From the IMG/VR virus record IMGVR_UViG_3300035698_022738, positions 32,852 to 96,851 of that record: DNA of 64,000 bases; one strand, given 5' to 3'. Both the position numbers and the translations under genes were made by a program. The notes beneath the pieces are model-generated. The model did not search any database and was not told where the DNA came from. It saw nothing but the letters and a program-made list of their open reading frames with translations. Below, one piece after another: positions 14,880 through 64,000 of the stretch. How positions within the stretch are numbered: the first letter of the stretch is position 1; each line of letters opens with the position of its first letter. The stretch is from a virus.

Positions 14880-14920
14880 GAGGTTACTCTACTGACTAAG
14901 TTGACATAACTGTCCCCTTC

Positions 14921-15165
14921 TCATGAGCTCATGAACTCCTCTATCATGAGCTCTTTTTTCATGAATCCATGAGCTCATGAGCTTATTGGCCCATGGGCCG
15001 ATTGAGCAAGGGCTCATGGATTCATGGAGCAAGGGCCAATTGGCCCATGAAATCATGAGATCATGAAGTCATGAATATAAGTGAAAACATGAGCTCATGA
15101 ATATAAGTGAAAACATGAGCTCATGAGCTCATGAATATAAGTGTTTGATGTAAAGACCATGATGT
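14921..15165. repeat. CATG/TCATGA array; candidate replication origin
   Basis: 19 CATG in ~245 bp, often 8 bp apart; 26-bp direct repeat catgaatataagtgaaaacatgagct; followed by an AT-rich tract. Confidence 0.85.
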
Positions 15166-15187
15166 TCTTCTTGAATTTTATTTTTGA

Positions 15188-15222
15188 TGCCACACTTTTA
15201 TATGTTCTTTCGTTTTATATAT
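15188..15222 (+). promoter_or_regulatory. Phage-type promoter (TGCCACAC...CGTTTTATAT)
   Basis: Matches the 11332 site; upstream of the 15269 ORF. Confidence 0.6.
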
Positions 15223-15268
15223 AAAAAGCCAACGGAGAATCTTCAGAGTTGCCTACAAGGAGATCGAA

Positions 15269-19484: not shown

Positions 19485-19565
19485 ACGTCGTTTGGGCGAC
19501 GTAAAATAGCCGTCAAGCCCAAAGCGTAGAGAGCTCCGAGTTGGAAGTTGGAGCTCTCTGGTCGG
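19485..19565 (+). ncRNA. Pistol self-cleaving ribozyme 1
   Basis: P1 CGUCG/CGACG; loop UUUGGG pairing with CCCAAA (pseudoknot); AAAUAG; P2 CCG/CGG; GCG; P3 UAGAGAGCUCC/GGAGCUCUCUG; GU cleavage site at 19561-19562. Confidence 0.88.
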
Positions 19566-21014: not shown

Positions 21015-21719
21015 ATGGAAAAATTGTTTCCGACATGGGATGAAAAGCCAACAGATTCTGGGCGTATGATTGCTTATGTTTCCGGACATTTCCGGTACTG
21101 GACTGGGAACTCGTGGAACCAATCCACGAGCTACGCGCATAACGTCAAGATTCCGAGGCTGGGTCTTGACAGTGAGACACGGGACAAGTGCTATGCTGCA
21201 CTGGATATTCCACAGGCTTTTGATGAGGTAAATGAAATTCTTGAAGACTTCGCTGTCCGGCACAACTACGCCTGGAAGATTTCGTTTAATGACCGCTCTG
21301 GGGGCTACCTTGTACTCTATCAGGGTGGGGTGAAAGACAACAAGTCATTTGTCTATCCAGTTCGAGGAGTGGGAGAGATGGACTGGGTGGACGGTGATTT
21401 TCTGACGGACTTGGTTGATGTGATATGGGATTTCGATGAGACTTGTCAGAGGGCTGTCGAAGTCTTTGTCGAATTTGCAGTGTCACATACCGTAGTGGAA
21501 GAAGAGATTATGGTTTCCAAAACAGTCCTTGTGGCAATCTCAAATGAGGATGCAAACCGCAGGGAGTCCAACAGGCTTTGGGAGTCGGCCTGTCAGTTCG
21601 ATGGGTACGATCCGGATGAAAAGTTTGTATGCTTTTCGGATGAAAATCCGTTCACCTCTGAGTACAACGCACGTATGATCGAGCGTCTGGAATACAGTCG
21701 GCAAGGCGACGTTAAATAG
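21015..21719 (+). CDS. Conserved hypothetical early protein
   Basis: GHFRYWTGNSWNQSTSYAHNVK...FNDRSGGYLVLY pattern; GGGAG SD. Confidence 0.65.
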   Translation: MEKLFPTWDEKPTDSGRMIAYVSGHFRYWTGNSWNQSTSYAHNVKIPRLGLDSETRDKCYAALDIPQAFDEVNEILEDFAVRHNYAWKISFNDRSGGYLVLYQGGVKDNKSFVYPVRGVGEMDWVDGDFLTDLVDVIWDFDETCQRAVEVFVEFAVSHTVVEEEIMVSKTVLVAISNEDANRRESNRLWESACQFDGYDPDEKFVCFSDENPFTSEYNARMIERLEYSRQGDVK

Positions 21720-21764
21720 CCATCAGGCCTTGCGCGTCAGGCCCCCTCTCGGGGCCTGGGTTGG
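21697..21764 (+). ncRNA. Pistol self-cleaving ribozyme 2
   Basis: P1 GUCG/CGAC; loop GCAAGG pairing with CCUUGC; UUAAAUAG; P2 CCA/UGG; GCG; P3 UCAGGCCCC/GGGGCCUGG; GU at 21760-21761; covaries with copy 1. Confidence 0.85.
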
Positions 21765-21791
21765 AACACAAATCAAGCATGGGAGACTAAA

Positions 21792-41656: not shown

Positions 41657-42310
41657 ATGGGGTTGCCAGTCAACGACGTTAAAGAAAAAGTTATCCTCTA
41701 CGTCCCAGGAACGGTGGGCGGCGGGACCTACTATATCGAGAGCAAACCACTATGCTTGAGTCCCATATCTGAGCTGGGGAAAGAGGATCAATTGTGCTCT
41801 CGGGGGGCTGGCTATGGAACCGACCACCAGGGTACAGGACGTTGTATGTACCATGGGGGGCGTCGGGGTGTGACAATTAAACATGGCAGGTATGCCGACG
41901 TTACAAAGAAGCAGCTCAGGGCTCAGATGTCCAAGTTTGAAGAAGAGGATGCCCAGGTCAAACTCAATCTGCTGCCTGAGTTGGATGTGCAGAGAGCTTT
42001 GCTGGCTGACATGATGATCATGTACCAAGAGGGAGGCCGTCGTAATCCTGATATGGTGCGTGTTTTGCAGAGTATGATAAACGATATCGGGAAGATGGTC
42101 GATAGAGTCGAAAAAATGCAGGATCGCAGGGTCCTGACCATTTCGACTGCCAAGCTCATGATGTCAAGGGCCTTGGAGGTAGCTGCTCGATTCATCCCCA
42201 AAGAGCAAATGCAAGAATTTATCTTTGCCTGGCGGGAAGAGGTTACTACGCCCCTGTCTCCATCTGGGGAAAATGGCAGGCAAAAGCAGTTGGAGCGTAT
42301 ACACGAATGA
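41657..42310 (+). CDS. Terminase small subunit candidate (HGG-motif protein)
   Basis: GRCMYHGG..KHGRY; directly upstream of TerL. Confidence 0.65.
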   Translation: MGLPVNDVKEKVILYVPGTVGGGTYYIESKPLCLSPISELGKEDQLCSRGAGYGTDHQGTGRCMYHGGRRGVTIKHGRYADVTKKQLRAQMSKFEEEDAQVKLNLLPELDVQRALLADMMIMYQEGGRRNPDMVRVLQSMINDIGKMVDRVEKMQDRRVLTISTAKLMMSRALEVAARFIPKEQMQEFIFAWREEVTTPLSPSGENGRQKQLERIHE

Positions 42311-43791
42311 GCTCTGAACTGACCCTCGATGATCTTTTTGAGTTTGCCTCTGAGTCTGTTTCAGAAGACCAGGCACCGGAAGTTGCGGTGACTTGGATAT
42401 GCGAGAATTTTATTGACCCCATAGCAAATACGCATATCAAACTTCAGCCATTCCAAAAACAAATATTGCACCATGCCCTCCAGATTGATCCAGACGGTTA
42501 CAGCAAATACGACACCGTTGTCTGGAGTCAAATTAAAAAGTCGGGGAAAACTGCTATCGCAGGTGCAGTCGGGGCCTGGATTGCTGAATGCGTAGAGGCT
42601 CCAAATGAGGTTGCCTGCGTAGCCAATGACCAGGAACAAAGTGCAGGTCGTATTTTTGCTGCCATGCTCCCTACTTTGGAACGTGTAGGTTGGACAGTGC
42701 CTTCGTCTCCAAAGGGGACAATGGCCTACAATTCCAGGGGCTCCTTGGTCAAGGCCATCACCACAAACTATAAGGGAGAGGCTGGCGGCAACCAGGGGAT
42801 TAGCCTGTGGTCAGAGTTGTGGGCTTACCAGGGGGAAAGATTGAATCGGCTCTGGGAAGAGATGACACCCCCTCCGACCCGTAAGTTCCGCATGAGATGG
42901 GTAGAGACATACGCTGGATTCCTGAATGAGTCAGACCAACTTTTTGGACTCTATTCACGGATATTCAAGGACCCAAAGACCGAAGAGTTACAAGACAATG
43001 TTGCCAAGCTTTGGGATGATCTTCCGGTCTATGAGGTCATGGATGAGAAGACTCTTGTGTTTTGGGACCACGAGCCACGCATGCCCTGGCAGACAGAAGA
43101 GTATTACGACAGCCAGAAGAGGCTTATTCGAGCATCTGCTTTCACTCGCTTGCACAAAAACATGTGGGTGCAGGCGTCTGATGAGTTCATTACAAACGAC
43201 ATGTGGGAAAACTCCCTGCGCCGCGATGGTCCTATGAATGTCAAAGCAACATACGCTCTGGACGGGTCTAAGTCGGGGGACAGCACCGTTCTGGTTGGTA
43301 CGGTCAGAGTTGGGGATACTGTGCATACCACCCATGTCAAGGTGTGGATACCAAAGGATGGGAAAGAGATAAAGCAAAAGGATGTCATGGAGTACATTCT
43401 GGCTTTGAACAAAAAACATCTTATAAGGCAGCCGCTCTACTATGATCCCTATCAAATGGTCAAGCTTGCCCAGGATTTGAGGGAAAGAGGCCTCAAGTGT
43501 GAGGAGTTCTCTCAAGGGGTGGAACGAGTTCGAGCTGATACATTTTTGCACCACCTGTATGCAAACGGATATATTGTCAATTGGCCGCATCCGGTAATGA
43601 AGAGCAATATATTGGCGGCCTCAGCTACGCAAGAGGGGAAAGATGACGCAGCCTATCGGATTGTTAAGCCCAGCGGGTTGGTATCCGAGTTGAACGCAAG
43701 GAAAGTAGATGCCGCTGTGGCTCAATCAATGTCTGCTTACAGAGCCTACCATGATAAACGAGGTGGGGGGTGGGCGTCCGTTGGAATATAA
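42307..43791 (+). CDS. terL: Terminase large subunit
   Basis: LQPFQ, KKSGKT Walker A, LWSELW Walker-B-like; nuclease ALDGS, YDPYQ, KVDAAVA. Confidence 0.9.
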   Translation: MSSELTLDDLFEFASESVSEDQAPEVAVTWICENFIDPIANTHIKLQPFQKQILHHALQIDPDGYSKYDTVVWSQIKKSGKTAIAGAVGAWIAECVEAPNEVACVANDQEQSAGRIFAAMLPTLERVGWTVPSSPKGTMAYNSRGSLVKAITTNYKGEAGGNQGISLWSELWAYQGERLNRLWEEMTPPPTRKFRMRWVETYAGFLNESDQLFGLYSRIFKDPKTEELQDNVAKLWDDLPVYEVMDEKTLVFWDHEPRMPWQTEEYYDSQKRLIRASAFTRLHKNMWVQASDEFITNDMWENSLRRDGPMNVKATYALDGSKSGDSTVLVGTVRVGDTVHTTHVKVWIPKDGKEIKQKDVMEYILALNKKHLIRQPLYYDPYQMVKLAQDLRERGLKCEEFSQGVERVRADTFLHHLYANGYIVNWPHPVMKSNILAASATQEGKDDAAYRIVKPSGLVSELNARKVDAAVAQSMSAYRAYHDKRGGGWASVGI

Positions 43792-49962: not shown

Positions 49963-50451
49963 ATGAGATTTTTGGCTTATGCTCGTTACGTTTTTATTCA
50001 CAAGTGGTACGTGTTTTGGGCCTGTTTGAAGCTTGGAGTTCCTATTTGGCTGGCAATTTTTCATGACGCATCAAAGTTCCTGCCCAGGGAGTTTATTCCT
50101 TACGCATATCAGTTCTATGACTCGAAGGGTGCTCCTAAAGATGTAAGAGATTCGAGTGGTGCCTATGACCCGAATTCTCAGTCGGATTCGTTCAAAAAAG
50201 CTTGGATATCTCATCAAAAAAATTGTCATCATTGGCAGGCATGGGTATCTATTGGGAATTTCGGGACCCTGGAGCCCTCCCCATTTCCGGAGAGATATGT
50301 CCGTGAGATGGTGGCAGACTGGATAGGGGCTGGGAAAGCTCGTGGGCAATCTGACCCGTCCGGTTGGTTTGAAAAGAACAGAAGTAGCATGGTGATCCAT
50401 CCGGAAACGGAAAAAAGAATTGATGAGATACTTGAGGGACTCGGTGAGTAG
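49963..50451 (+). CDS. DUF5662-like HD-related protein
   Basis: HKWYV, HDASKF, AW..H..N.HHWQ, EMVADW. Confidence 0.75.
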   Translation: MRFLAYARYVFIHKWYVFWACLKLGVPIWLAIFHDASKFLPREFIPYAYQFYDSKGAPKDVRDSSGAYDPNSQSDSFKKAWISHQKNCHHWQAWVSIGNFGTLEPSPFPERYVREMVADWIGAGKARGQSDPSGWFEKNRSSMVIHPETEKRIDEILEGLGE

Positions 50452-52315
50452 AATCTTTGAGTAAAAGAAGAGGCAGATATGCAAGAGCACGAGAACGTCC
50501 AGTATGGACGGGTGAGAATTTTAGCATTGGGTCAGATGGTGCAGAACCTTTTGGGAGACGATCCCAATACTGTTATCCAGTTGACATACCAGTTGGATGA
50601 TAGTGGGAATCAAGGCTATCCTCGGTTTATTGAAGTTACTTGCTCAACACCGCTTGCTGTCAGTATGGAAAAGATAAGGCAGGCAGTGGAACAGACCATG
50701 GAGGGGAACTGGTTATTTTTGGGGTCAGTTCCGAGAGAGGGAACGGCTGCTGAGGGGGTATTCATCACGGCTACATTCCAACGGCTTGTGACTATAGTTG
50801 GGAATACCCAACATATTTGATACATTTTTCGTTCTATCCTATAGGAGAGTTTTACATGAAATTGCTAGGAGTTGTCGTAATTCTGCTGATTGCTATTTTC
50901 TTGCTGGTGAGTCCGACCTTTGCCCAGAATACAGATCGCCCTCCGCAAATGCAGGGGTTTTGGGTGTGTCAGGATACTTGGTGTCTTGCTTTGCAGTGGA
51001 CAACTTCATGCCCACCAAGCGGCTGTCCTGTCGTTTATCCCTTTGGTTCCATAGTTTACGATTGGGAGCCAGTGATTGTGAAGGCACCCGCATGGATACA
51101 CTATTCCCTTCCACCTGGGCCGCATCGAGCGAGTTGATAAGAATACTGATTGAGTCAAAATGGAACAAAAAAGAGAGGAGCCAGTAGGCTATGGGAAAGA
51201 CGTTTACAAGCAGGGGAAGTGATCTCAGACAGGCGTTGGAAGCTGTTCGAGAGCAAGAGCAAAAATCTGTGGGTGACCGGGAGCTAATTTCTCGTGACGT
51301 TGGAGAATTGGTATGGGAGTATGTGCGAGAGCGGCTCTGGCACCTGAGATGGTCGTCCAGTGTCCAAAAGTACGATGAGAGGATTTCATTTACAATCTCA
51401 GAATCATCGAATAGTTCTAGCAACCTGGCCCAGAGAAGGTCAATTATGGCTCGCATGTTTGATCTGAGCGGAGAGTGTACTCTCGGTCCTGGTGTGCTTT
51501 TCCTGTGGAACGGGCGTGATTTCGAGGTCGTTGCTCAGTTCACTGATGATGCCTCTTCCACCCTGGCAACGTTAGTGAGTGAGGGGATGATACTGGACAG
51601 GTTTCAATTGGGTTTGTGCACGATGGCTCTGAGTAAGAAAGCTGATGGGCATAGCAAATTGCTCCATAGAGTCGATGAGAAAATCATCTACTTGAATGGT
51701 ATCCAAATGTTTCAGGCAAAGATTATAGACTCTGGTAAGAGCCCTGAGTAAGGGAAAGGAAAAGGAAAATGACTGAATTGATAAGTGAGATCAAGCTGTT
51801 GGATATTGAGGATGAGGTCAAGCTGGCTGGGTCACTTTTGGTTGTGGCTCAAGATATTTTGAAGGGTGTGCAAACTCTTTCCATAGGCATAACTCGGGTC
51901 CTGGTAGGCTCAGATGACCTTGCTCGTGAGCTGGACGGGGAAGCTGCCCACAAGAAGATTTCGAGTCTGATGGAGTCGGCAAAGAAGTCTGGTAGTATTC
52001 TTAATTTCATTGAGGGTCTACCTGCTGATGACCTCAAAAACTTCGGAGACATGAGTGCCAGGGCAATCAATGCCATTATGCTCGATGAGCAAGTCATGGG
52101 AACCAAGCTGGCTATTCAGAGCATCATTGAAGCTGAGCGAGCTTTGAAGGCTGCTTGCTCCGAGCTGAAAAAGTCTCAGAGTCTTTTGGAGGCAGTGGCA
52201 GAGGTTCCAGGAGAGTTGGAAGTGACAGCGGAGTCCATGAGCTCCGTGCTAGATGAGGTTTCTGAGATACTCTGCAAGAATTGTGATAGAAACGGAGAGC
52301 GCGTTGGAGAATCTT

Positions 52316-52969
52316 ATGGAGAGTGCTGAGGTCAAGCCCCAGGTTTTCATTTTAGCTGCGGGTGCTGGTGAACGTTGGCGAAGATCTGTCAGTGGCGGCA
52401 ATCCAAAGCAGACAATGAAGCTGGATGGTACTACCTCCATCATATCCAGGATCGAGGGGCAGTGCATCAGTCTCGGGTACACTCCGATTGTTGTAACCAA
52501 TTCAGACCAAATACGGGAATGCACGGGGCATAGTATGCAAGTGTCTCCACAGAATGATAAGTTCACTGTGGAGACACTTCTTTCATGTGAGTCCTGGTTT
52601 ATACATAGAAATGTCGTGTTGCTGGGGGACGTTGTTTATTCTCCGCAAGCTATCCGTAAGATATTGACCAGTCAGAGCAGCCTAAAATTCTTCGGAAGCA
52701 AGGATGAGATATTTGGACTCATATTTGAATATAGTCCCGAGCTCATGGACAAGTTGAAAGCTGTCTGGCAGGTTGCGGAGGCTGGTAAATGCTCTGGAAT
52801 CCTATGGTGTCTGTACAGGTTTTTAGAGGGCTTTGGCTACCAGGACTATAAATTTGGATCACTCTATGAGTTCATAGAGGACGGGACAGATGACATTGAT
52901 GAGTGGGTGGATTTCAATCGGATGCGGCATGCCTATCAATCCTTACGTGTGAAGTGGGGTGAGGTATGA
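52316..52969 (+). CDS. Nucleotidyltransferase (NTP transferase family)
   Basis: ILAAGAGERW..PKQ, LLGDV, DDID. Confidence 0.8.
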   Translation: MESAEVKPQVFILAAGAGERWRRSVSGGNPKQTMKLDGTTSIISRIEGQCISLGYTPIVVTNSDQIRECTGHSMQVSPQNDKFTVETLLSCESWFIHRNVVLLGDVVYSPQAIRKILTSQSSLKFFGSKDEIFGLIFEYSPELMDKLKAVWQVAEAGKCSGILWCLYRFLEGFGYQDYKFGSLYEFIEDGTDDIDEWVDFNRMRHAYQSLRVKWGEV

Positions 52970-53178
52970 TTGTAAACGAAGATCGTACAAATCCAGTTCA
53001 AGTAAAACAGGCTGAATGGCGAGGCCAGAGACGGCTTGATATTCGTCATATTTTCTACCGTGAGGATGGGGAAGTATTTCCAACCAAAAAGGGGGTAGCA
53101 ATCCCTGAAGAGGATATACCCTCGTTCATCGAAGCTATCCAAGGGGTTGTAGACGAAATGGGGACGCCCGATGAGTGA
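52966..53178 (+). CDS. PC4/YdbC-family ssDNA-binding protein
   Basis: EWRGQRRLDIR...PTKKGVAI. Confidence 0.85.
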   Translation: MIVNEDRTNPVQVKQAEWRGQRRLDIRHIFYREDGEVFPTKKGVAIPEEDIPSFIEAIQGVVDEMGTPDE

Positions 53179-53229
53179 GGCTGGTAGAGTTGGGGATTTA
53201 GAGGTACAATAACAGAGGAGGTACAAAAC

Positions 53230-53622
53230 ATGGTTATCGCAATAGGACCAAGGAGTCAGCAGGGACCAGGTGGGGGCATTGTGAGGTTGGACGTGCCACT
53301 TGCGACAGGCGCGGCTGTTTCTGATGTCATAGACCTGGAAGAGATGATGGCCGTTGGAGTTATGGTTCCTGTGGGTTTTGTGGGGAATGAGTTGTATTTT
53401 GAAGCTGGTTTTGGGCGTACAGGTGCTTACATGCATCCGCTCTATGATGATGCCGGGAATCGGATGATTGTAACCTGCGGAGCAGACAGGTATGTCGACT
53501 TTGAGCATGATGCTTTTGATGGTGTGCGTTTTCTGCGTATTCTGACAATGGCCCAGGGTTCTGAGCAGGTCCAGACATCTGATATTGTCCTTCAGCTTGC
53601 TTTGAGACGAGCTTTGTCATAG
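53230..53622 (+). CDS. Probable virion decoration protein
   Basis: Beta-sandwich-like sequence adjacent to the spike-base gene. Confidence 0.45.
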   Translation: MVIAIGPRSQQGPGGGIVRLDVPLATGAAVSDVIDLEEMMAVGVMVPVGFVGNELYFEAGFGRTGAYMHPLYDDAGNRMIVTCGADRYVDFEHDAFDGVRFLRILTMAQGSEQVQTSDIVLQLALRRALS

Positions 53623-53638
53623 TTCATGGAGGTGATCT

Positions 53639-53881
53639 ATGTTACTACGAAATCAAGACGCGAGTTCATTTTCCAATGGGTTTAGCATTACGCCCTCAGA
53701 TGTTGCGGAGATCACAGAGACTCGTGGAATCTTTGTTGGGGTGTCTGGAAATTTGAGGGTACAGACAGCTGGCGGAGATGACCTGACATTTGCAACAGTT
53801 CCTGTCGGGATATTTCCCGTCAAAGCTATAATGGTGTACGCCACCAGCACAACTGCCTCCAGTCTTGTGGGTGTGTACTAA
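53639..53881 (+). CDS. Head spike base protein (RcGTA rcc01079-like)
   Basis: ITPSD....TRGIFVGVSGNLRV...TF..VP.G..PV...V.ATSTTA..LVG pattern. Confidence 0.75.
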   Translation: MLLRNQDASSFSNGFSITPSDVAEITETRGIFVGVSGNLRVQTAGGDDLTFATVPVGIFPVKAIMVYATSTTASSLVGVY

Positions 53882-53905
53882 TGAGATCACGTAGGGGGGA
53901 ATAGT

Positions 53906-54514
53906 ATGATTCAAATGGATAGCGCACAAATCAAAAATTACATTGAAGCTATCGGTCCCTGGCATTACTGTTGGAAGCTGCCCTCCAACCATTTGACGGG
54001 TGATAGTGCACCAAACCTGATCCCGGAGAAGATGCCCATGATGATTGAATCTGGGGCGTTTGCCAGGGACAGCTACCCAGAAGTCTTGGACCTGGGGGCC
54101 AACTCAGGCTATATTTCCAAGTGGTTCGTAGAGAACAAGGATAGTCACGTCCTGGCTGTTGAGCGTGGTGAGAAGTTCTGGCTTCAGCTGAATTTCATTG
54201 TAGAAGTCTATGGGCTTGAGTCCAGGATTGCAACAATGAACGCACCCATTGAAGCTTGTGCATGGATGATCTCTGCGCCCTATGACTTGATCATATTCCT
54301 GGGGACTTTACACCATATTCAGCGCAAGCATCATGACAAGATTTTCGAGCACTGCTTTCAGGCACTTCGGCCTGGGGGTGAGATTGTAATCCAGACCAAG
54401 CGGGAAGAGGATGTCATTCAGAAGTTTGAAGCTGCTGGCTTTGAGGACGCAGACCTGCTTTACTGGAGTGACAAACAGGAAAGAGGCGCATGGGTAGCAA
54501 AAAGACCAAAGTAA
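53906..54514 (+). CDS. Class I SAM-dependent methyltransferase
   Basis: VLDLGANSG, YDLIIFLGTLHH, LRPGG. Confidence 0.85.
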   Translation: MIQMDSAQIKNYIEAIGPWHYCWKLPSNHLTGDSAPNLIPEKMPMMIESGAFARDSYPEVLDLGANSGYISKWFVENKDSHVLAVERGEKFWLQLNFIVEVYGLESRIATMNAPIEACAWMISAPYDLIIFLGTLHHIQRKHHDKIFEHCFQALRPGGEIVIQTKREEDVIQKFEAAGFEDADLLYWSDKQERGAWVAKRPK

Positions 54515-55322
54515 GTGCCAAGGAATTGAGAGTCTTGTTGGGCATTGAAGATGATGATGAGTTGGCAGTCCTTATGATGTCAATTCTATCCCGGCAAGTT
54601 GTCATGCTTCATTATTTGAGAGGCATGTTCCATCTGCTGGAGTTCTACAACCACGCTTTCGACACCGAGCATAACATGACTCATTCCTACAACGGCTTGC
54701 GTGGTCTCCTGGATGGGCTTGAGGAGACTCTATGGAAGCATGTTCCACCTCGGGCTGCGATCACGCCCCTCTTTAACTGGATTGAAGAGGGAGAGTTGCC
54801 GGAGGATATGCTTGAGATATTGAAGTGTGATCGACATGGCAGGAAATTTGGACCCAATGATCAAGAGGGAGAGCTCGGGAATGACTCATTTCGAGCTGCC
54901 ATGGGTATGGAGGCAACGAAGAAAAAGCCCTGATTCTAAGCCTTCTTTCGTTCTATAGAGTAGGAGTTCATTAAATCTTACAAGGAGACAAATATGTTAA
55001 AGCGACTAGCTTTGAAGCTCTTCGTGGCGTTAGGTCTCGAAGAGATTGTGTTGGAAAAGACACAAGAAAACGTCAAGGACTGGGCATACCGCGCACTTTG
55101 GGGGTATGCCGGGGGTGAGAACAACTATTTCCTGGCGGATGACATTCTGGCCCGTTATGCTCTTCAGATGCTATTGGAGCTGGAAACTAAGGCACTGTTT
55201 GAGAAAAGATATCAGGAACCCATTTCACCAGGATCATTGGCAGAGAGTGCTCAAGGGGGGATTGACGTTTGGGATTTGAAGAGGGGGAGGGTCGAGGATG
55301 ATGAGGACTAAAGCCAAGTCAA

Positions 55323-56069
55323 TTGACAGTGATTGAAGTAGACGGCCCGGTAGGGCAAGGAGACAGTATGTCAAATTTACATGCGTTAAAAAATCTGGTA
55401 CATGAGGATGAGGCATTCATGTTGTTTGAGTCGTTTGCGGTGTCCTCACATTTGGTCAAAGAAAACGTATACCGTTTCCGTGGTTTTCAGTTTGATACCA
55501 TGGAGAATCGAGAGCTCTTTTCTCCGCATGGTGATGATCTGATGCTGGTTTTCCGCCAGCCCTGGAACACGACAGAGCCCGTCAGTACAGTGGCTTTCAT
55601 GAAGTTGCCGTACAATTGCAGTCCCGAGTCGGATGAACTACAGTATTTGGGCAGCTACCCGCTCAATATAACAGACGTGGTAAGACAGGCCCATATGAAG
55701 CTGGTTCCAGATGAGTTCATCGGCAAGGTCAAATTCATTGATCGGAATGAAGGCCAGCTGGGTACGATTGCCCGCTATGAGTTGGAAAAGGACTCATTGC
55801 CGACAGTCAAAGAACGACGCATTTCAGTGGTGAGTTTTTTCACACCAGGATCGGGGAGCGACGGAGAGCCTACTATCAATCGAGTCGAGCTTTGGACCGG
55901 AGAGGGAACCTACGCGCTCCAGAACGAAGAGAGGTCCCCATTGCAGCTGGCTTTGATCCTGGAATATGCTGTAAGCAACACAGAGGCCTTATCGTATTTG
56001 ATGTGTCGAACAGCGTTTCCGATTTATGATGAGCACTGCAAGTCGCTTGGACTTGATAGCATGGCGTAG
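55323..56069 (+). CDS. Hypothetical protein
   Basis: 248-aa ORF; no recognised motif. Confidence 0.6.
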   Translation: MTVIEVDGPVGQGDSMSNLHALKNLVHEDEAFMLFESFAVSSHLVKENVYRFRGFQFDTMENRELFSPHGDDLMLVFRQPWNTTEPVSTVAFMKLPYNCSPESDELQYLGSYPLNITDVVRQAHMKLVPDEFIGKVKFIDRNEGQLGTIARYELEKDSLPTVKERRISVVSFFTPGSGSDGEPTINRVELWTGEGTYALQNEERSPLQLALILEYAVSNTEALSYLMCRTAFPIYDEHCKSLGLDSMA

Positions 56070-56216
56070 CTTAGAATCAAAGCCTCGTAGGGTCAGGGGA
56101 GTACCCCAGCTCATGCAGTATTTATATGTAGGTGTGACACGCATATAAATACATGTTATGTCAACAATGAAGCTGCTCCAAGGAACCGATAGTGGAGGGG
56201 GTACACTAAGGAACCT

Positions 56217-59200
56217 ATGAGGCTTTCAATTCTTTCATGCGGTTCAATCGTTGTAGATGGATCAAATGGCAACAGCAGGTTGCTATTTGGAGTCCCCGAT
56301 GGTGTCATTCATTCCCTCAAAGAGAGTGGCATGGATCACCCGACCATGGCGTTCACTACTTCCATGAGAGCCCCAGGTGTCGGGTCGATGGAACAAGCTA
56401 TCCCCATTTTTCGAGAGAGCCCTTACAGCAACGGAGAGCTCAGTGCATCCCTCATAAGACACAAACATGGCAGCGACTATTGTATTGAAGCTGACGGCGC
56501 AAAGCTCCTTTTCTCCGAGAGGGGCGATGTCTCAGTTTTGGATACCGCGAATTATGACCTGGCAATCATCAAAAACAAACATAGAGCTGACGCCCTGGGT
56601 GAGCACGTTATCACATGGCCCTGGCCGGATAGCGAGGTATCAATCGTGGATCACGACGTTCATTTTAGTTCCACGGAAAAGGTTTGGGGAAGGCTATCAG
56701 AGGTCCCCAGCAATTTGAAAAAAGTAGACGGCAAACCCTTGACTCTTTCCCAGGCCAATTGGCTGGCAAGTGCAGCGGATAGCATTGAAGCTGACGGAGA
56801 TGCCAAAGAGCCGTGGGCAATCGCCATGTCTCAATTCAAAAAAACCTTTGAGAAAACAGAGGATGGTTGGCAGAGAACCGAGTGCCTAACCGGACAGAGA
56901 GATAAGGAAACCGTCGGAACTGAAGCTGACTTGCAAGAGACAAACGTAGAGAGTGAAGGAACCTACGAGACAGAGCAATTTGGAAAAGTCTCAGTTGACA
57001 ACGTGCGCCGGGTAGAGATGGGAACCAAGCGCGGTATGACTGAAGCTAAGATTTTCTCAAGAGACGGTAGAACAACCACGACTCTTGTTGGAGGCGAAGC
57101 TGAGAATTTCCTGGACTGGTGGAACCAAAACAAACCAGAAGGACCCCAGAGTTCAAGAACCAATACCCTGCCGCCAGCCCCTACCGTAGTTTCGTCTCAA
57201 CCAAGCCCGTCTCAAAAGGGAGTCAGGCCAAAACCCCTAAGAAAAGCGGTTGCTGATTCTCAGGGAGCCCAGCAACTTGAAACAAAGCCAGAGAGTGAAG
57301 TTGGTGTTGAAGATGAAACAACGCCGCAAGAGGAGCCAGAGCAAATGAAAAAGGATCCAAAAGACAAATCAGAAGAGGCCCTGGCAGAAATGGCAGACGA
57401 AGAGGAACCTGATTTCAAAAAGGATTCCAAACCAGATCAATCAAATGAAGCTGACACAAAGCCCTCAGACGAAGAGAAGCCTGTAAATGACACAGAAGAA
57501 AATCAAGATCAATCAGTGGATAACACCGAAGAGAAGCCAACAGAATCAAATGAAGCTGATGAACCTCAGCCAAAGAAGTCAGCTAAGCCTACTGAGAGGC
57601 CCTCAGACGAAGAGAAGCCTAATCCTGAAGGGAATTCCTCTGAAGAGGATCAAGAGAATGAAGCTGACAGAGAGCCTAATCCCAAAGAGGATAAGAACAG
57701 CAATCAATCAGGCAAACCAAAAGTCCCGGCTTATCTTACAGAGGGAGAGACACCTGAAGCGCAACCACTACCAAAAGATACAGATGAGGACCCAGATCAG
57801 TCAAAGGGAAAGAAGTCCCCTGAGAATGAAGCTGACACAAAGGCAGATAGTGAGCCAGAGGATGAAGACATAGCAGATAGAGATCAAGAGAAAAAGGATC
57901 AATCAGAAGAAGAGGATTCAAGTAAGAAAAAACCCACAAAGAAAAAAGCAAAGGAACTACAGGCTAAGGAAAGACTAGAGAGAGCCTGGGTAGACAGAGA
58001 CTTTGAAAGCATTGAAGCTGAGAGAGTAGCAGAGAAGGCAGTAAGGGAAGTACAGGAAACAGTAGGGGAAAGCATTGGAGCTGAGAACGTAGGGGAAGTA
58101 CAGAGAGTAGGGAAGGCAGAAGGAGTCACGGAGCAGGGAACAGAGAGAACAGAAGAGAACACGGAGCATGGAACAGAGAGAGTAGGGAAAACAGAAGGAA
58201 AAGAAGAGAAAACAGAAGGAATCACGGAGCATGTAAAAATCAAAACAGAAGAGAACACGGAGCATGTAAAAATCAAAACAGAAGAATCCCGCCCCGCAGG
58301 GCGTGTGCAAAAATTCACAAACGCCAATCCGGAACACATCGCTCAAAAAGAGGGGCTCCAGGCTACAATGGATCGCTTTGCAGCCACCCTCCGGCAACAG
58401 TTCTGGGCCTCCGACATTGAAGCTGACACCGTTGACTGCTCTGGCACTTACAGGCCCTGGCTGGTAGAGTTGGAGCCTGGTCTGGCCTACGTGGAATTGA
58501 ATGGGGGCTACTTTGCGGTCCCCTACACAATAGAGGGATCAAAGAGAGAAGATATCAAGTTTGCTCCCAGAGAGCTTTGGTTGGATGCCGCCAGAACGTG
58601 GGGCATTGAAGCTGATGAGGCCCAGATCGACGCACTTTTGACATTCTACGCGCCCACAGGTGAGATACCTAAAATGGGCGCAGTGATGCTTGGAAAAGGT
58701 GAAATAACCAAAAACAAGGCAGGCCTGACTGCTACAGACTACCTGGCAGTTGAAGACCCAGACAAGCCTGCCACCTGGAGGCTGCCTGTGGCCGTTAAAC
58801 ACGGGCAACCAAGCCCTAGACTAATGAAGGCGGCTGCGGACGCTCTAGCAGCCCCAGGGGGCTTCAGGGGCAAATCCTATGAAGGTCCTAAAGCAGAGGG
58901 AGCACGAAAGAAGCTCCTGGCAATCTACAACAAGCTTGAGTTGGACGCGCCGGGGAGCCTGGCCCAGTTCAAGAGTATTTGGGAGAACGCTCCCAGTTAT
59001 GAAGACTGGCAGGCAAGCAAAAAGGGCTTTTCAGACATTGAAGCTCCCAGTTATCTTGAATGGGGAGCTGAGCATGGGGACCTCATGGCCCTGGCATTCT
59101 ACCCAGACCTCATGGACGTGAGTCGCACGCTTGAAGAAAAAACGGTAAAAGAATGGACAGAAGAAGGCCCCGAGAGACGTTTGGGAGACGTGCTAACCTC

Positions 59201-60557
59201 AAGTATCCACAAGGCGTTTACCACTGAAGCTGACAACCTATACGGAGAGGGCTTTATGAATGAAGAGGAGAGGATCGCCCTCAGTTCCGCCATAGGCGAT
59301 ATGTTAGGGCTATTTAGGGAAAAGGCAGACAAAAAAGTGCTAGAGAGGCCGCTCATGACCACGACCAAGATTCCATTGAAGTTGAAAGAATATTGCCCAC
59401 AGGCCCCAGATGAAATAGAGGGTATTTGGACTTCAGTTTGGAAAGAAGACGGTAAGTGGAAATGGGCAGCGATTACAGCTGTTTCCATGTGGGATCGCCA
59501 GGGTGAGTTTTTGACCCACAAAGCGATTGACTGGGCTTTGGCTATGTCAAAAGTAATTGGCCCTGGCCCATTGCGATATAAGCATATTCCCGGCCTGGAC
59601 GGAGGAGATTGTGACCGTCAAATTAGAGTCGGGGATTATCTGTTTGAAGCTGGGACATTCCGTGACAGCCCCATAGGACTGGCTATGAGGACTAAAATGC
59701 AGAGTGACCCTACATGGCAAATATCGCCCGGACTGGCCTTCAGAGCTAGTGACCTACAGAGAGGGGTGTATCAGAGAGCCTCGATATTTGAAAGGTCGAT
59801 TACACAATCCCCAGCTATTCCGGCGACAGCCATCCTATCTATCACGCAAGGAAATGAGGACATTGAAATGGCCGTTAAGGAGTTGGATCAGAACGCTATT
59901 CAAGCGGTTGCAAAAGAGCTTGGCCTGGACGTAGGCTACGTGGAAGAGCTCCACAAACGCAGCCTGGCAGGCACGGGTGATCCTCTAGGATTGTCTGAAT
60001 TCAAGGAGTTTGTGGCCTATAAGGCAGGTAAGAAGGCAGACCCGCCAGCAGCCATACCCCCTGAAGAAGAGGACATGGAAGAGGACGAAGATGAAGAGGA
60101 TACCAAAAAGAAGCCCTCCAAGGAGAGTGAATTCTCCAAGGTAGTAGGCTCCATGAAGAGCGTGGCCCCGAAGCTCACACGCGCACAACGTGAGCAGTTG
60201 GCTAACGTGCTTGACCCACGGCATACAGCTACCAAGCACGAAGAGGACGGAGACCTGGCAGAAATCAAGCAAGTGCTCAAGCAGCAGGCAGCTGTGATGG
60301 GCAGCCTGGTATCAGCCGTATCCGACCTCCAAGAGGTAGCAGGGACGCAGGCAGGCCTACCACGCAGCCAGGCCGCACAATTCATGGTAGCCGCCAAAGA
60401 GGACGCACCGGCAACGCAAGCAACCGACCAAGAAATCCTCGCAAAGCTGGATCAAATCCAGCAGGCCGTAAAGGCCGTCGAGGCTAATCCCCTGGCAGCA
60501 GGGGGTAACGTGTACGAATTGTTTACCAGCGACAAGCTGAACCAGCGTGGGGCGTAG
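56217..60557 (+). CDS. Giant prohead protease/scaffold fusion protein
   Basis: Immediately upstream of the capsid gene; protease-like DRQGE..L.YKH..G...ISPG...ERS..PA region; ChaB-like segment; long acidic low-complexity tract; helical scaffold-like C-terminus. Confidence 0.65.
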   Translation: MRLSILSCGSIVVDGSNGNSRLLFGVPDGVIHSLKESGMDHPTMAFTTSMRAPGVGSMEQAIPIFRESPYSNGELSASLIRHKHGSDYCIEADGAKLLFSERGDVSVLDTANYDLAIIKNKHRADALGEHVITWPWPDSEVSIVDHDVHFSSTEKVWGRLSEVPSNLKKVDGKPLTLSQANWLASAADSIEADGDAKEPWAIAMSQFKKTFEKTEDGWQRTECLTGQRDKETVGTEADLQETNVESEGTYETEQFGKVSVDNVRRVEMGTKRGMTEAKIFSRDGRTTTTLVGGEAENFLDWWNQNKPEGPQSSRTNTLPPAPTVVSSQPSPSQKGVRPKPLRKAVADSQGAQQLETKPESEVGVEDETTPQEEPEQMKKDPKDKSEEALAEMADEEEPDFKKDSKPDQSNEADTKPSDEEKPVNDTEENQDQSVDNTEEKPTESNEADEPQPKKSAKPTERPSDEEKPNPEGNSSEEDQENEADREPNPKEDKNSNQSGKPKVPAYLTEGETPEAQPLPKDTDEDPDQSKGKKSPENEADTKADSEPEDEDIADRDQEKKDQSEEEDSSKKKPTKKKAKELQAKERLERAWVDRDFESIEAERVAEKAVREVQETVGESIGAENVGEVQRVGKAEGVTEQGTERTEENTEHGTERVGKTEGKEEKTEGITEHVKIKTEENTEHVKIKTEESRPAGRVQKFTNANPEHIAQKEGLQATMDRFAATLRQQFWASDIEADTVDCSGTYRPWLVELEPGLAYVELNGGYFAVPYTIEGSKREDIKFAPRELWLDAARTWGIEADEAQIDALLTFYAPTGEIPKMGAVMLGKGEITKNKAGLTATDYLAVEDPDKPATWRLPVAVKHGQPSPRLMKAAADALAAPGGFRGKSYEGPKAEGARKKLLAIYNKLELDAPGSLAQFKSIWENAPSYEDWQASKKGFSDIEAPSYLEWGAEHGDLMALAFYPDLMDVSRTLEEKTVKEWTEEGPERRLGDVLTSSIHKAFTTEADNLYGEGFMNEEERIALSSAIGDMLGLFREKADKKVLERPLMTTTKIPLKLKEYCPQAPDEIEGIWTSVWKEDGKWKWAAITAVSMWDRQGEFLTHKAIDWALAMSKVIGPGPLRYKHIPGLDGGDCDRQIRVGDYLFEAGTFRDSPIGLAMRTKMQSDPTWQISPGLAFRASDLQRGVYQRASIFERSITQSPAIPATAILSITQGNEDIEMAVKELDQNAIQAVAKELGLDVGYVEELHKRSLAGTGDPLGLSEFKEFVAYKAGKKADPPAAIPPEEEDMEEDEDEEDTKKKPSKESEFSKVVGSMKSVAPKLTRAQREQLANVLDPRHTATKHEEDGDLAEIKQVLKQQAAVMGSLVSAVSDLQEVAGTQAGLPRSQAAQFMVAAKEDAPATQATDQEILAKLDQIQQAVKAVEANPLAAGGNVYELFTSDKLNQRGA
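56486..59233 (+). repeat. Dispersed TGAAGCTGA motif array (11 exact copies)
   Basis: Copies at 56486, 56786, 56921, 57446, 57551, 57659, 57827, 58013, 58418, 58607 and 59225. Confidence 0.9.
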
Positions 60558-62516: not shown

Positions 62517-64000
62517 ATGATTGCTACTACTTTACATAAGAGTTCTGCGCTAAAACACCTGCCTGGTCAGCACGAACAGATTTCACACGGGAATTGGGCG
62601 GAGGGAAGTGCGAGTAAATACATCACAAACGCAGATTCAATGGATGACGCCCTCCGTCAAAAGGATGTATTGTGGAATCCAAACCCAGATGGACCGGGAG
62701 TGTATATAAATCCTCCCTCGATTGAATCCTTGCTCAACAAACCAATGGAAAGAGGTGTATTATCGAGCAAAGGAAAGACAGTCAAGGACTACTTGAGAGA
62801 TTTCCTGCCGTTGAAGATCATCTATGATCCAGTCACTAATTCAATAATTGCTCCAACCTCCGGTGAGCAGACCACTCATTATGACGTTGCTGCGGGTGTA
62901 GTTGGACACACCCCAGGACGTGTGCTTGATGTAGAGGACAATGAGACGTATGCAGCAATAGTCGGTCTTGTGTCTGAGTTGGAAGACAGGTCTGTGAGAT
63001 TGGTCCTGACAGGGAACTCAGCTGGAACTCCTGATTTCATCCAAGTCAACATTGAGTCAGCTGGAGCTGTGGGCGACAAGGATAAGGCCCTCAAGAATAT
63101 CTATGAGGCACTGGACAAGATGTCAGAGTTGGGTCTTCCAAATGACCTGGAAGTTGAAATAGAGGATAGGTCTGGAGATACAATCCAGACTTCCATCAAA
63201 CATCTCCCAGGCCAGCATGAGCAAGAATCTCATGGAAACTGGGCCTCTGGAACAATAGAGCACCCCTCCTCAGAGCTGCCAATTCAGTCTGAAGTGAGTG
63301 ATGCCGCCAGAAAAGCTTTGACAACCGTTGCTGACAACATCCGAGACAAGGAATGGGAAGAGTTCTACTCTATTGATCCTGAGACAGGGCGCAATCGGTA
63401 CAATGCTATCGGAACAAGGCTCAGCTGTAACATTGGGCAGGACCTTCTATCATTTGAAGGCACCCTTGCGATTCACAACCACCCGCTGGGCAGCTACACG
63501 TTTTCAGCTGATGACCTCTTGGTGTTTGCAAAAGCGGGAGTAGCCGAAGGAATCGTCGTAGGCCGGGACTACTTTGGGAATGAGGTTTTTGCCAGCATCG
63601 CGCCCAGTGATGGTGATATAGCATCGTGGCCTGACCCGTATCGGCTTATGGAGAAGTATCAAGACCTCAATCATTCTATTCATTCTGAGCTTGAAAGAGA
63701 GTTGAAAGGAAAGGGGTACTCTTTCCCCGAGATCAGGGGTGCTGTTGCAGACGAATCAGCAAGACAGGTGGCCGACTATTTTGGTCTGAGTTACGTGTCA
63801 CATGGATTTCCAGATTTGGATGCCATGAGAAGTAGGGGTCCGGCCTCCAACGAAGGACAAGAATACTTTGATAAGATGGCAGAGTCCAGAGATGCGTACC
63901 TTGCCCGAAGACCAGAAATCACAGCTGAGCTGCAAGAGGCCCGTCAAGCACTATTACAAAACAAATACAGCGTTATCAAACATCTTCCAGGCCAGCATGA
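62517..64000 (+). CDS. Modular polyprotein-like protein with repeated KHLPGQHxQxSHGNWA tags; module 2 is JAB/MPN-like (3' truncated by window)
   Basis: Manually translated open frame from ATG 62517 to the window end; tags at 62553, 63198 and 63978; module 2 has E...IHNHP..TFSADD. Confidence 0.85.
   Translation, partial: MIATTLHKSSALKHLPGQHEQISHGNWAEGSASKYITNADSMDDALRQKDVLWNPNPDGPGVYINPPSIESLLNKPMERGVLSSKGKTVKDYLRDFLPLKIIYDPVTNSIIAPTSGEQTTHYDVAAGVVGHTPGRVLDVEDNETYAAIVGLVSELEDRSVRLVLTGNSAGTPDFIQVNIESAGAVGDKDKALKNIYEALDKMSELGLPNDLEVEIEDRSGDTIQTSIKHLPGQHEQESHGNWASGTIEHPSSELPIQSEVSDAARKALTTVADNIRDKEWEEFYSIDPETGRNRYNAIGTRLSCNIGQDLLSFEGTLAIHNHPLGSYTFSADDLLVFAKAGVAEGIVVGRDYFGNEVFASIAPSDGDIASWPDPYRLMEKYQDLNHSIHSELERELKGKGYSFPEIRGAVADESARQVADYFGLSYVSHGFPDLDAMRSRGPASNEGQEYFDKMAESRDAYLARRPEITAELQEARQALLQNKYSVIKHLPGQH

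Follow-up and report, generated by a model that had tools for sequence, protein, structure and literature searches.

The DNA analysed here, a 64,000-nt stretch of IMG/VR virus record IMGVR_UViG_3300035698_022738 (the window, whose coordinates are used throughout), comes from one 96,851-bp contig of an uncultured phage. A short word built on the core TGAAGCT recurs 24 times on one strand of a 9.6-kb block of this genome, which ends in the gene of a 1446-residue polyprotein (P0001) just upstream of the major capsid gene. Very probably, this array is a signal written in the nucleotides themselves, on top of coding sequence. The interpretation that we favour, at somewhat short of an even chance, is an operon-restricted cis-acting signal read on the sense transcript. 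An initial annotation of the stretch had proposed a signal overprinted on coding sequence, and the proposal is borne out at the nucleotide level by frozen silent sites and by copies that are out of frame or in a leader.

The 9-mer TGAAGCTGA occurs 12 times in the window, exclusively on the + strand. Eleven copies lie at 56486-59233 inside the open reading frame (ORF) 56217-60557, which encodes P0001, and one at 52128, in agreement with the counts of the initial annotation. Dinucleotide shuffles averaged 1.1 copies and never exceeded 5. Over the whole 96,851-bp genome it is the top-ranked 9-mer by frequency, with 13 copies on the + strand and 0 on the - strand, and a k-mer map of both strands indicates that it is not a word common to the entire genome. 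The second commonest 9-mer, TGAGTTGGA, is scattered across the entire genome. Additional near-matches had been reported; those at 56168, 57041, 57095, 58076 and 59645 are present, but the one at 59039 carries two mismatches (TGAAGCTCC) and is a copy of the TGAAGCT core.

The core has 29 + strand copies genome-wide, 24 of which are located at 50027-59645. Position -2 relative to the core is A or T in all 24 regional copies and G or C in all five copies elsewhere (p 8e-6). The extended word W-N-TGAAGCT (W, A or T) accordingly has 24 copies, all on the + strand and all within 9.6 kb (50027-59645), where a Markov-3 model trained on the rest of the genome predicts 0.49. No copy was found on either strand of the remaining 87 kb. 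The expected number outside the region was 4.4 (order-3, p 0.013) or 2.25 (order-4, p 0.105) for the + strand, 2.5 (order-3) for the - strand, and 6.8 (order-3, p 0.001) or 3.8 (order-4, p 0.02) for both strands together, which is a modest hint of avoidance outside the array region. The motif logo is C(-3) W H TGAAGCT G A C, with sharp edges and no information in the flanks beyond. The motif is 10-12 nt long, asymmetric and non-palindromic. The copies are as follows.

50025..50035, + strand, core copy TTTGAAGCTTG, L-K-L frame of the DUF5662 gene 49963-50451
52126..52136, + strand, exact 9-mer copy ATTGAAGCTGA, IEAE in ORF 51769-52329
52414..52424, + strand, core copy AATGAAGCTGG, M-K-L frame of the NTP_transf_3-like ORF 52253-52969
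53398..53408, + strand, core copy TTTGAAGCTGG, FEAG in ORF 53230-53622
53942..53952, + strand, core copy ATTGAAGCTAT, IEAI in the S-adenosylmethionine (SAM) methyltransferase gene 53906-54514
54248..54258, + strand, core copy ATTGAAGCTTG, IEAC in the methyltransferase gene 53906-54514
54425..54435, + strand, core copy TTTGAAGCTGC, FEAA in the methyltransferase gene 53906-54514
55011..55021, + strand, core copy TTTGAAGCTCT, L-K-L frame of ORF 54994-55311
55694..55704, + strand, core copy TATGAAGCTGG, M-K-L frame of ORF 55323-56069
56166..56176, + strand, core copy AATGAAGCTGC, intergenic leader, 49 nt upstream of the P0001 ATG
56484..56494, + strand, exact copy, C-IEAD-G, residues 90-93, beta-hairpin turn of the metallo-beta-lactamase-fold domain in the model
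56784..56794, + strand, exact copy, S-IEAD-G, residues 190-193, inter-helix loop in the model
56919..56929, + strand, exact copy, G-TEAD-L, residues 235-238
57039..57049, + strand, core copy ACTGAAGCTAA, M-TEAK
57444..57454, + strand, exact copy, S-NEAD-T, acidic spacer
57549..57559, + strand, exact copy, S-NEAD-E, acidic spacer
57657..57667, + strand, exact copy, E-NEAD-R, acidic spacer
57825..57835, + strand, exact copy, E-NEAD-T, acidic spacer
58011..58021, + strand, exact copy, S-IEAE-R
58416..58426, + strand, exact copy, D-IEAD-T
58605..58615, + strand, exact copy, G-IEAD-E
59037..59047, + strand, core copy ATTGAAGCTCC, D-IEAP
59223..59233, + strand, exact copy, T-TEAD-N, residue 1003
59643..59653, + strand, core copy TTTGAAGCTGG, LFEAG in the protease domain

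The array touches at least eight genes between the MuF gene and the protease domain of P0001, and its copies are irregularly spaced (105-2101 nt) with no phasing. It had initially been placed inside the protease gene. A gp21-fold protease is indeed encoded there, but the array is not confined to it, because ten core copies precede the P0001 gene, in two reading frames of other ORFs and in one leader. Five of these upstream copies are read in the x-Glu-Ala frame, four in a (Leu/Met)-Lys-Leu frame, and one belongs to the leader. The (Leu/Met)-Lys-Leu copies fall in real ORFs, namely those of DUF5662, the NTP-transferase-like protein and two genes without an assigned function. Inside the P0001 gene the frame of the copies is uniform (14:0, compared with 5:4 upstream; p 0.014), and a second in-gene frame is also open.

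The codons of the array are fixed to a degree that the genome does not otherwise show. All in-gene copies read xxT GAA GCT, and all exact ones read xxT GAA GCT GA, as first described. The variable Ile, Asn or Thr residue corresponds exactly to the codon ANT, and the silent positions are fixed in 11 of 11 exact copies and in 24 of 24 core copies. The codon shares within the P0001 gene are 51% for GAA, 29% for GCT and 13% for ACT. Glu-Ala is spelled GAA GCT in 15 of the 19 pairs of the P0001 gene, compared with 11 of 131 pairs (8%) outside the region (Fisher 1e-10), and [INTF]EA is spelled xxT GAA GCT in 18 of 18 cases in the region compared with one of 25 elsewhere (3e-11). Two IEAD peptides encoded outside the region are written ATC GAG GCA GAT. 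Codon bias was rejected as the cause, since the genome prefers GAG GCx, while TGAGTTGGA is scattered genome-wide.

The same genome provides an internal control in the form of a repeated peptide tag, KHLPGQH(E/D)Q.SHG.WA (n = 12), in which the Leu, Pro, Gly, Gln and His codons vary freely. The tag sites are located as follows.

48137, 62538, 63183 and 63963 of the window, and eight sites in the first 11 kb of the genome, KHLPGQH tag in cargo-like polyproteins

A relative of the protease polyprotein (P0033) also bears a KHLPGQH-like tag, HQPGKHSQKTHG.

The pairwise flank identity and the flank extension of the copies are the same as those of phase-matched controls. Therefore, the copies do not derive from a longer stretch that was duplicated, in contrast to the IMG/VR tandem repeats that contain the same 9-mer, and spread by duplication was rejected on these flank tests. 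The four NEAD copies of the acidic spacer have a few extra bases in common. Taken together, the frozen silent positions, the ANT degeneracy, the out-of-frame and leader copies, the sharp edges of the motif and the free codons of the control tag argue for a signal at the nucleotide level, and a motif that acts purely at the protein level is excluded. Because annotation stops at the protein, nucleic-acid signals overprinted on phage structural genes are seldom noticed. The present case is unusually clean, with 24 codon-frozen copies on one strand of one 9.6-kb block and a built-in control tag with free codons, and it illustrates that the repetition of a peptide in a polyprotein does not by itself mark a protease site.

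The full P0001 protein gave no Pfam, PHROG or PDB-sequence match, and its domains were assigned from structural models and from comparison with relatives.

56217..60557, + strand, P0001 ORF, 1446-residue polyprotein with 14 core copies, 11 of them exact 9-mers
56217..56666, + strand, metallo-beta-lactamase-fold domain, approximately residues 1-150 (predicted local distance difference test score, pLDDT, of the model 92, and Foldseek)
56877..59141, + strand, lineage-specific insertion, approximately residues 221-975 (~750 residues), from an occupancy map against 21 relatives
59421..59816, + strand, prohead protease domain, approximately residues 1069-1200, with a T4 gp21/assemblin fold (model pLDDT 79)

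The N-terminal domain matched PqqB, ELAC/RNase Z, YhfI, CPSF73 and the anti-Pycsar nuclease Apyc1 in Foldseek (E 1e-5 to 1e-3). On the basis of the model, residues 1-150 can be assigned with confidence to the metallo-beta-lactamase fold, nearest to the group of RNase Z/ELAC, CPSF73, PqqB and Apyc1. The HxHxDH metal motif of this domain is degenerate, and only H84, D87 and D104 are invariant. A ChaB identity for residues 155-220 was rejected, as it lacks Pfam confirmation and only a distant homologue in locus L011 scores. The lineage-specific insertion holds 10 of the 14 in-gene copies; within it are a low-complexity acidic stretch and, at 58127-58285, a tandem repeat of 33 nt. The modelled C-terminal domain has the fold of the T4 gp21 prohead protease. 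It aligned best with 5jbl_A (Z 10.4, rmsd (root mean square deviation) 2.3 Å over 127 residues; VIA-align), followed by the herpesvirus proteases of varicella-zoster virus and human cytomegalovirus (VZV and HCMV; Z 6.9 and 5.5), and unrelated folds scored 4.2 or lower. The candidate catalytic residues H1123 and S1170 are invariant in 6-10 relatives. The LFEAG copy (59645) falls in the family-conserved LFE[AS]G of this domain.

Two features were observed around the start of the P0001 gene. The leader copy of the motif opens a 17-codon upstream ORF (56167-56220), whose end overlaps the P0001 ATG as ATGA. The T4 late-promoter consensus TATAAATA has a single + strand occurrence in the genome, 73 nt upstream of the same ATG.

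Relatives were sought in GenBank phages, IMG/VR, JGI metagenomes, GTDB genomes and two protein sets, one of 5.8 billion non-redundant proteins (word-indexed) and one of 1.8 billion cluster representatives (full HMMER). The P0001 family comprises 1127 representatives at E <=0.001, none of which exceeds 55% identity or has the insertion. The peptide [INT]EA[DE] is found 0-1 times in each of more than 70 relatives (41-55% identity), and the positions homologous to the copies hold IE-DG, TGADG or DTSD. A protein-level motif had been expected to leave relatives that keep EAD with variable codons; these relatives do not keep EAD. The DNA of three relatives' loci (L002-L004) lacks the word altogether and offers no convincing array in its place. 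Other k-mer arrays in relatives' loci (AAGGCAG and TGAAGGAA in L002, CAAGGAGGC in L011 and CTGGAAAG in L009) were rejected because they were not significant after correction, or because codon use, Shine-Dalgarno-like words or local repeats explain them. A scan of IMG/VR for three spaced copies of the 9-mer returned 42 loci, mostly tandem acidic or coiled-coil repeats, and none of the 42 was shown to be a dispersed multi-gene array; four of them (L037, L041, L043 and L044) are acidic or coiled-coil ORFs with dissimilar flanks, and one is a non-coding array of CRISPR-like appearance. A literature search for the 9-mer returned primers only. Across the sequences searched, the motif array is specific to this phage lineage.

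The exclusive use of one strand leaves two classes of reader, acting on a transcript signal or on a polar DNA signal. We favour a transcript signal because the word is confined to the sense strand, is indifferent to the reading frame and also stands in the leader of the main gene, and because it is restricted to the block before the capsid gene and depleted in other + strand sequence. In the mechanism that we propose, the word C-W-H-TGAAGCT-G-A-C would be selected at the nucleotide level and read on the transcript by a sequence-specific RNA-binding or RNA-cutting factor of the phage or the host. This factor would set the stability or translation of the low-copy part of the head operon, i.e. 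the enzymes and the protease polyprotein, relative to the following capsid gene. Inside the P0001 gene, the word would have been placed in the sole frame that gives x-Glu-Ala-Asp/Glu, a peptide presumably tolerated in loops and in the acidic spacer, and the in-frame copies may double as Glu|Ala cut sites for the gp21-fold protease of P0001 itself. That the reader works on RNA is close to, and slightly below, an even proposition. RNA ends or ribosome pauses at UGAAGCUGA would favour it, and the array would then represent a new phage means of balancing protease and scaffold against capsid protein.

Motif-targeted mRNA cleavage is known from T4 RegB, which acts at GGAG, and from MazF, for which some mRNAs, such as S. 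aureus sraP, are rich in sites. The RegB and MazF words are 4-7 nt long and not operon-restricted, unlike the array here. Autoregulation of the P22 scaffolding protein, as relayed in a later account, is a case of post-transcriptional control of head-assembly genes (Wyckoff and Casjens 1985, via PMC5529062). The array resembles these systems in that sense-strand elements in given messages decide their fate, and a scaffold gene is a known target of dosage control at the RNA level. We know of no sequence motif in the autoregulation of the P22 scaffold.

Several observations weigh against the transcript reading. No reader of the word was pinpointed, no transcription-unit boundaries matching the array could be shown, and no close relative was found, the best match having 55% amino-acid identity. 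The copies have no RNA structural context in common, and their predicted accessibility is about the same as that of controls. The depletion on the - strand (0 compared with 2.5 expected), if real, better fits a reader of duplex DNA. The use of a single in-gene frame, despite the second open frame, points to an added protein-level meaning. Neither a late-promoter word common to the intergenic regions nor a phage small RNA with a seed complementary to the word was found. A more specific form of the transcript reading, which we consider unlikely, is that the word is an address on the sense strand read by a phage factor, possibly the RNase Z/CPSF-like metallo-beta-lactamase-fold domain of P0001 itself, with the in-frame copies also cut by the protease. 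Such RNA-level autoregulation would adjust the amount of the protease-scaffold and the neighbouring enzyme set relative to the capsid protein.

The main rival to the transcript signal, possible though rather doubtful, is a polar DNA signal read on one strand by a translocating or end-processing enzyme. Candidates are a Chi-like site for host RecBCD/AddAB, an orienting signal of a packaging or segregation motor, and an extended terminase recognition region. A short, asymmetric, irregularly spaced and frame-independent motif on one strand is what such an enzyme would read, and the possible two-strand avoidance outside the region (0 compared with 6.8 or 3.8 expected) fits it as well. Chi and KOPS/SRS are polar motifs of this kind, 7-9 nt long, asymmetric, strand-specific, irregularly spaced and indifferent to frame. 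However, they are spread genome-wide with a strand skew, whereas the array occupies 10% of the genome and has no copies outside it. This distribution, with 0 copies in the other 87 kb, counts against the Chi-like reading, although the word is as strand-specific, short and asymmetric as Chi. If the reader does act on DNA, the array would be a new kind of polar landmark within a head operon.

DNA sites overprinted on coding sequence have precedents in the P1 pac site, with seven TGATCA/G hexamers inside pacA, and in the lambda ori iterons inside gene O. In both, short nucleotide words are repeated in an ORF and yield a repeated peptide as a by-product. These sites are compact (~160 bp or tandem), belong to the gene whose product uses them, and are present in both orientations or as a regular array. 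In contrast, the 24 co-oriented copies here extend over 9.6 kb, at a distance from both the terminase genes and the origin-like iterons. The terminase genes are located as follows.

42307-43791, TerL, from which the distance to the array was taken
41657-42310, weak TerS candidate

The initial annotation had named terminase small subunit/pac, parS-like and origin-binding readers. None of them gained support, as the sites are non-palindromic, restricted to one strand, irregular and 6-16 kb downstream of the terminase genes. A compact pac site, as known pac sites are, is disfavoured because the array at 50027-59645 lies at that distance from TerL. A parS-type centromere is disfavoured because the motif is asymmetric, has 0 copies on the - strand and forms no palindrome. 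Replication-origin iterons are disfavoured because the spacings are 105-2101 nt in coding DNA and the canonical cluster lies elsewhere. That intergenic cluster (window 14900-15230) is made up of CATGAGCTCATG palindromes (5+6 copies of ATGAGCTCA within 200 nt), also has a longer repeated unit, and runs into an AT-rich stretch; it looks like an origin or operator region. The contig ends (window 63985-64000 and genome 1-14) share 14 nt inside the HLPGQH tag, and a cargo ORF crosses the junction; judging from these ends, the assembly would be either circular (circularly permuted) or broken at the tag repeat. With a circularly permuted contig, nothing places the array close to a physical DNA end, which also counts against a polar DNA signal.

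A further explanation, which appears improbable, gives the copies two uses. The in-frame copies would be Glu|Ala sites of the gp21-fold protease, and the identical DNA would be kept or regenerated by microhomology-mediated recombination, through which in-frame segments are gained, lost and shuffled. In its favour are the T4 gp21 fold of the protease domain and the cleavage after Glu by proteases of the gp21 type, at L/I-x-E| in T4 and at A/S/G-x-E| in phiKZ and SPN3US (PMC5694885). The 14 in-gene copies share one frame and the sequence x-E-A, with Glu at P1 and a small residue at P1', and 10 of them lie in the ~750-residue lineage-specific insertion. In the model, both copies in the N-terminal conserved region occupy surface-type positions, one in a hairpin turn and the other in a loop between helices, and multiple cuts would fragment the scaffold-like spacer. 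A Glu|Ala cut site may thus be a second, protein-level meaning of the in-frame copies. However, there are upstream copies out of frame, midway in unrelated genes, and one in the leader. The flanks bear no trace of conversion tracts, and the boundaries of the insertion and indels do not visibly coincide with copies. The known gp21-family motifs act at the protein level without codon constraint; a cleavage motif would constrain residues and leave silent positions free, whereas the array has its silent positions fixed and other IEAD peptides of the genome use different codons. The motif also lacks the P3 Leu/Ile or Ala of those sites. Nor does it recur in other processed head proteins or persist in relatives, as the capsid protein contains no xEAD and relatives have 0-1 copies. 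Five relatives (P0002, P0016, P0020, P0023 and P0026) have 5-8 Leu-Lys-Glu copies, with a conserved GL[KS]EF directly behind the protease domain, so that a T4-like L-x-E sequence is a candidate cleavage motif of the family.

A purely protein-level cleavage or docking motif spread by duplication, with its codons inherited or set by bias, is extremely improbable: the few extra bases common to the four NEAD copies and the frequency of 9-mer-encoded xEA[DE] in tandem acidic repeats of other phages would suit it, but it fails as a sole explanation against a genome codon use that disfavours GAA GCT, unrelated flanks no more alike than controls, the nucleotide-level features (ANT degeneracy, other-frame and leader copies, W at -2), the silent variation of the control tag and the 0-1 copies in relatives.

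Three minor observations were made elsewhere. Rfam and tRNA scans of the sequence returned no tRNAs and nothing besides two pistol ribozymes, both far from the array (window 19486-19545 and 21696-21765; 42 and 61 bits, above the gathering score). An IMG/VR locus (L015:4436-6504, reverse strand) contains 20 non-coding repeats with CGCCCTTGAAGCTGAGAC, mostly 43-77 nt apart, which look like a clustered regularly interspaced short palindromic repeat (CRISPR)-like array containing the same 9-mer by chance. The same protease domain as in P0001 is also part of a 1855-residue metagenome polyprotein (L009:5684-11248), in which it is fused to a Dam-type DNA methyltransferase and an ATP-dependent DNA ligase.

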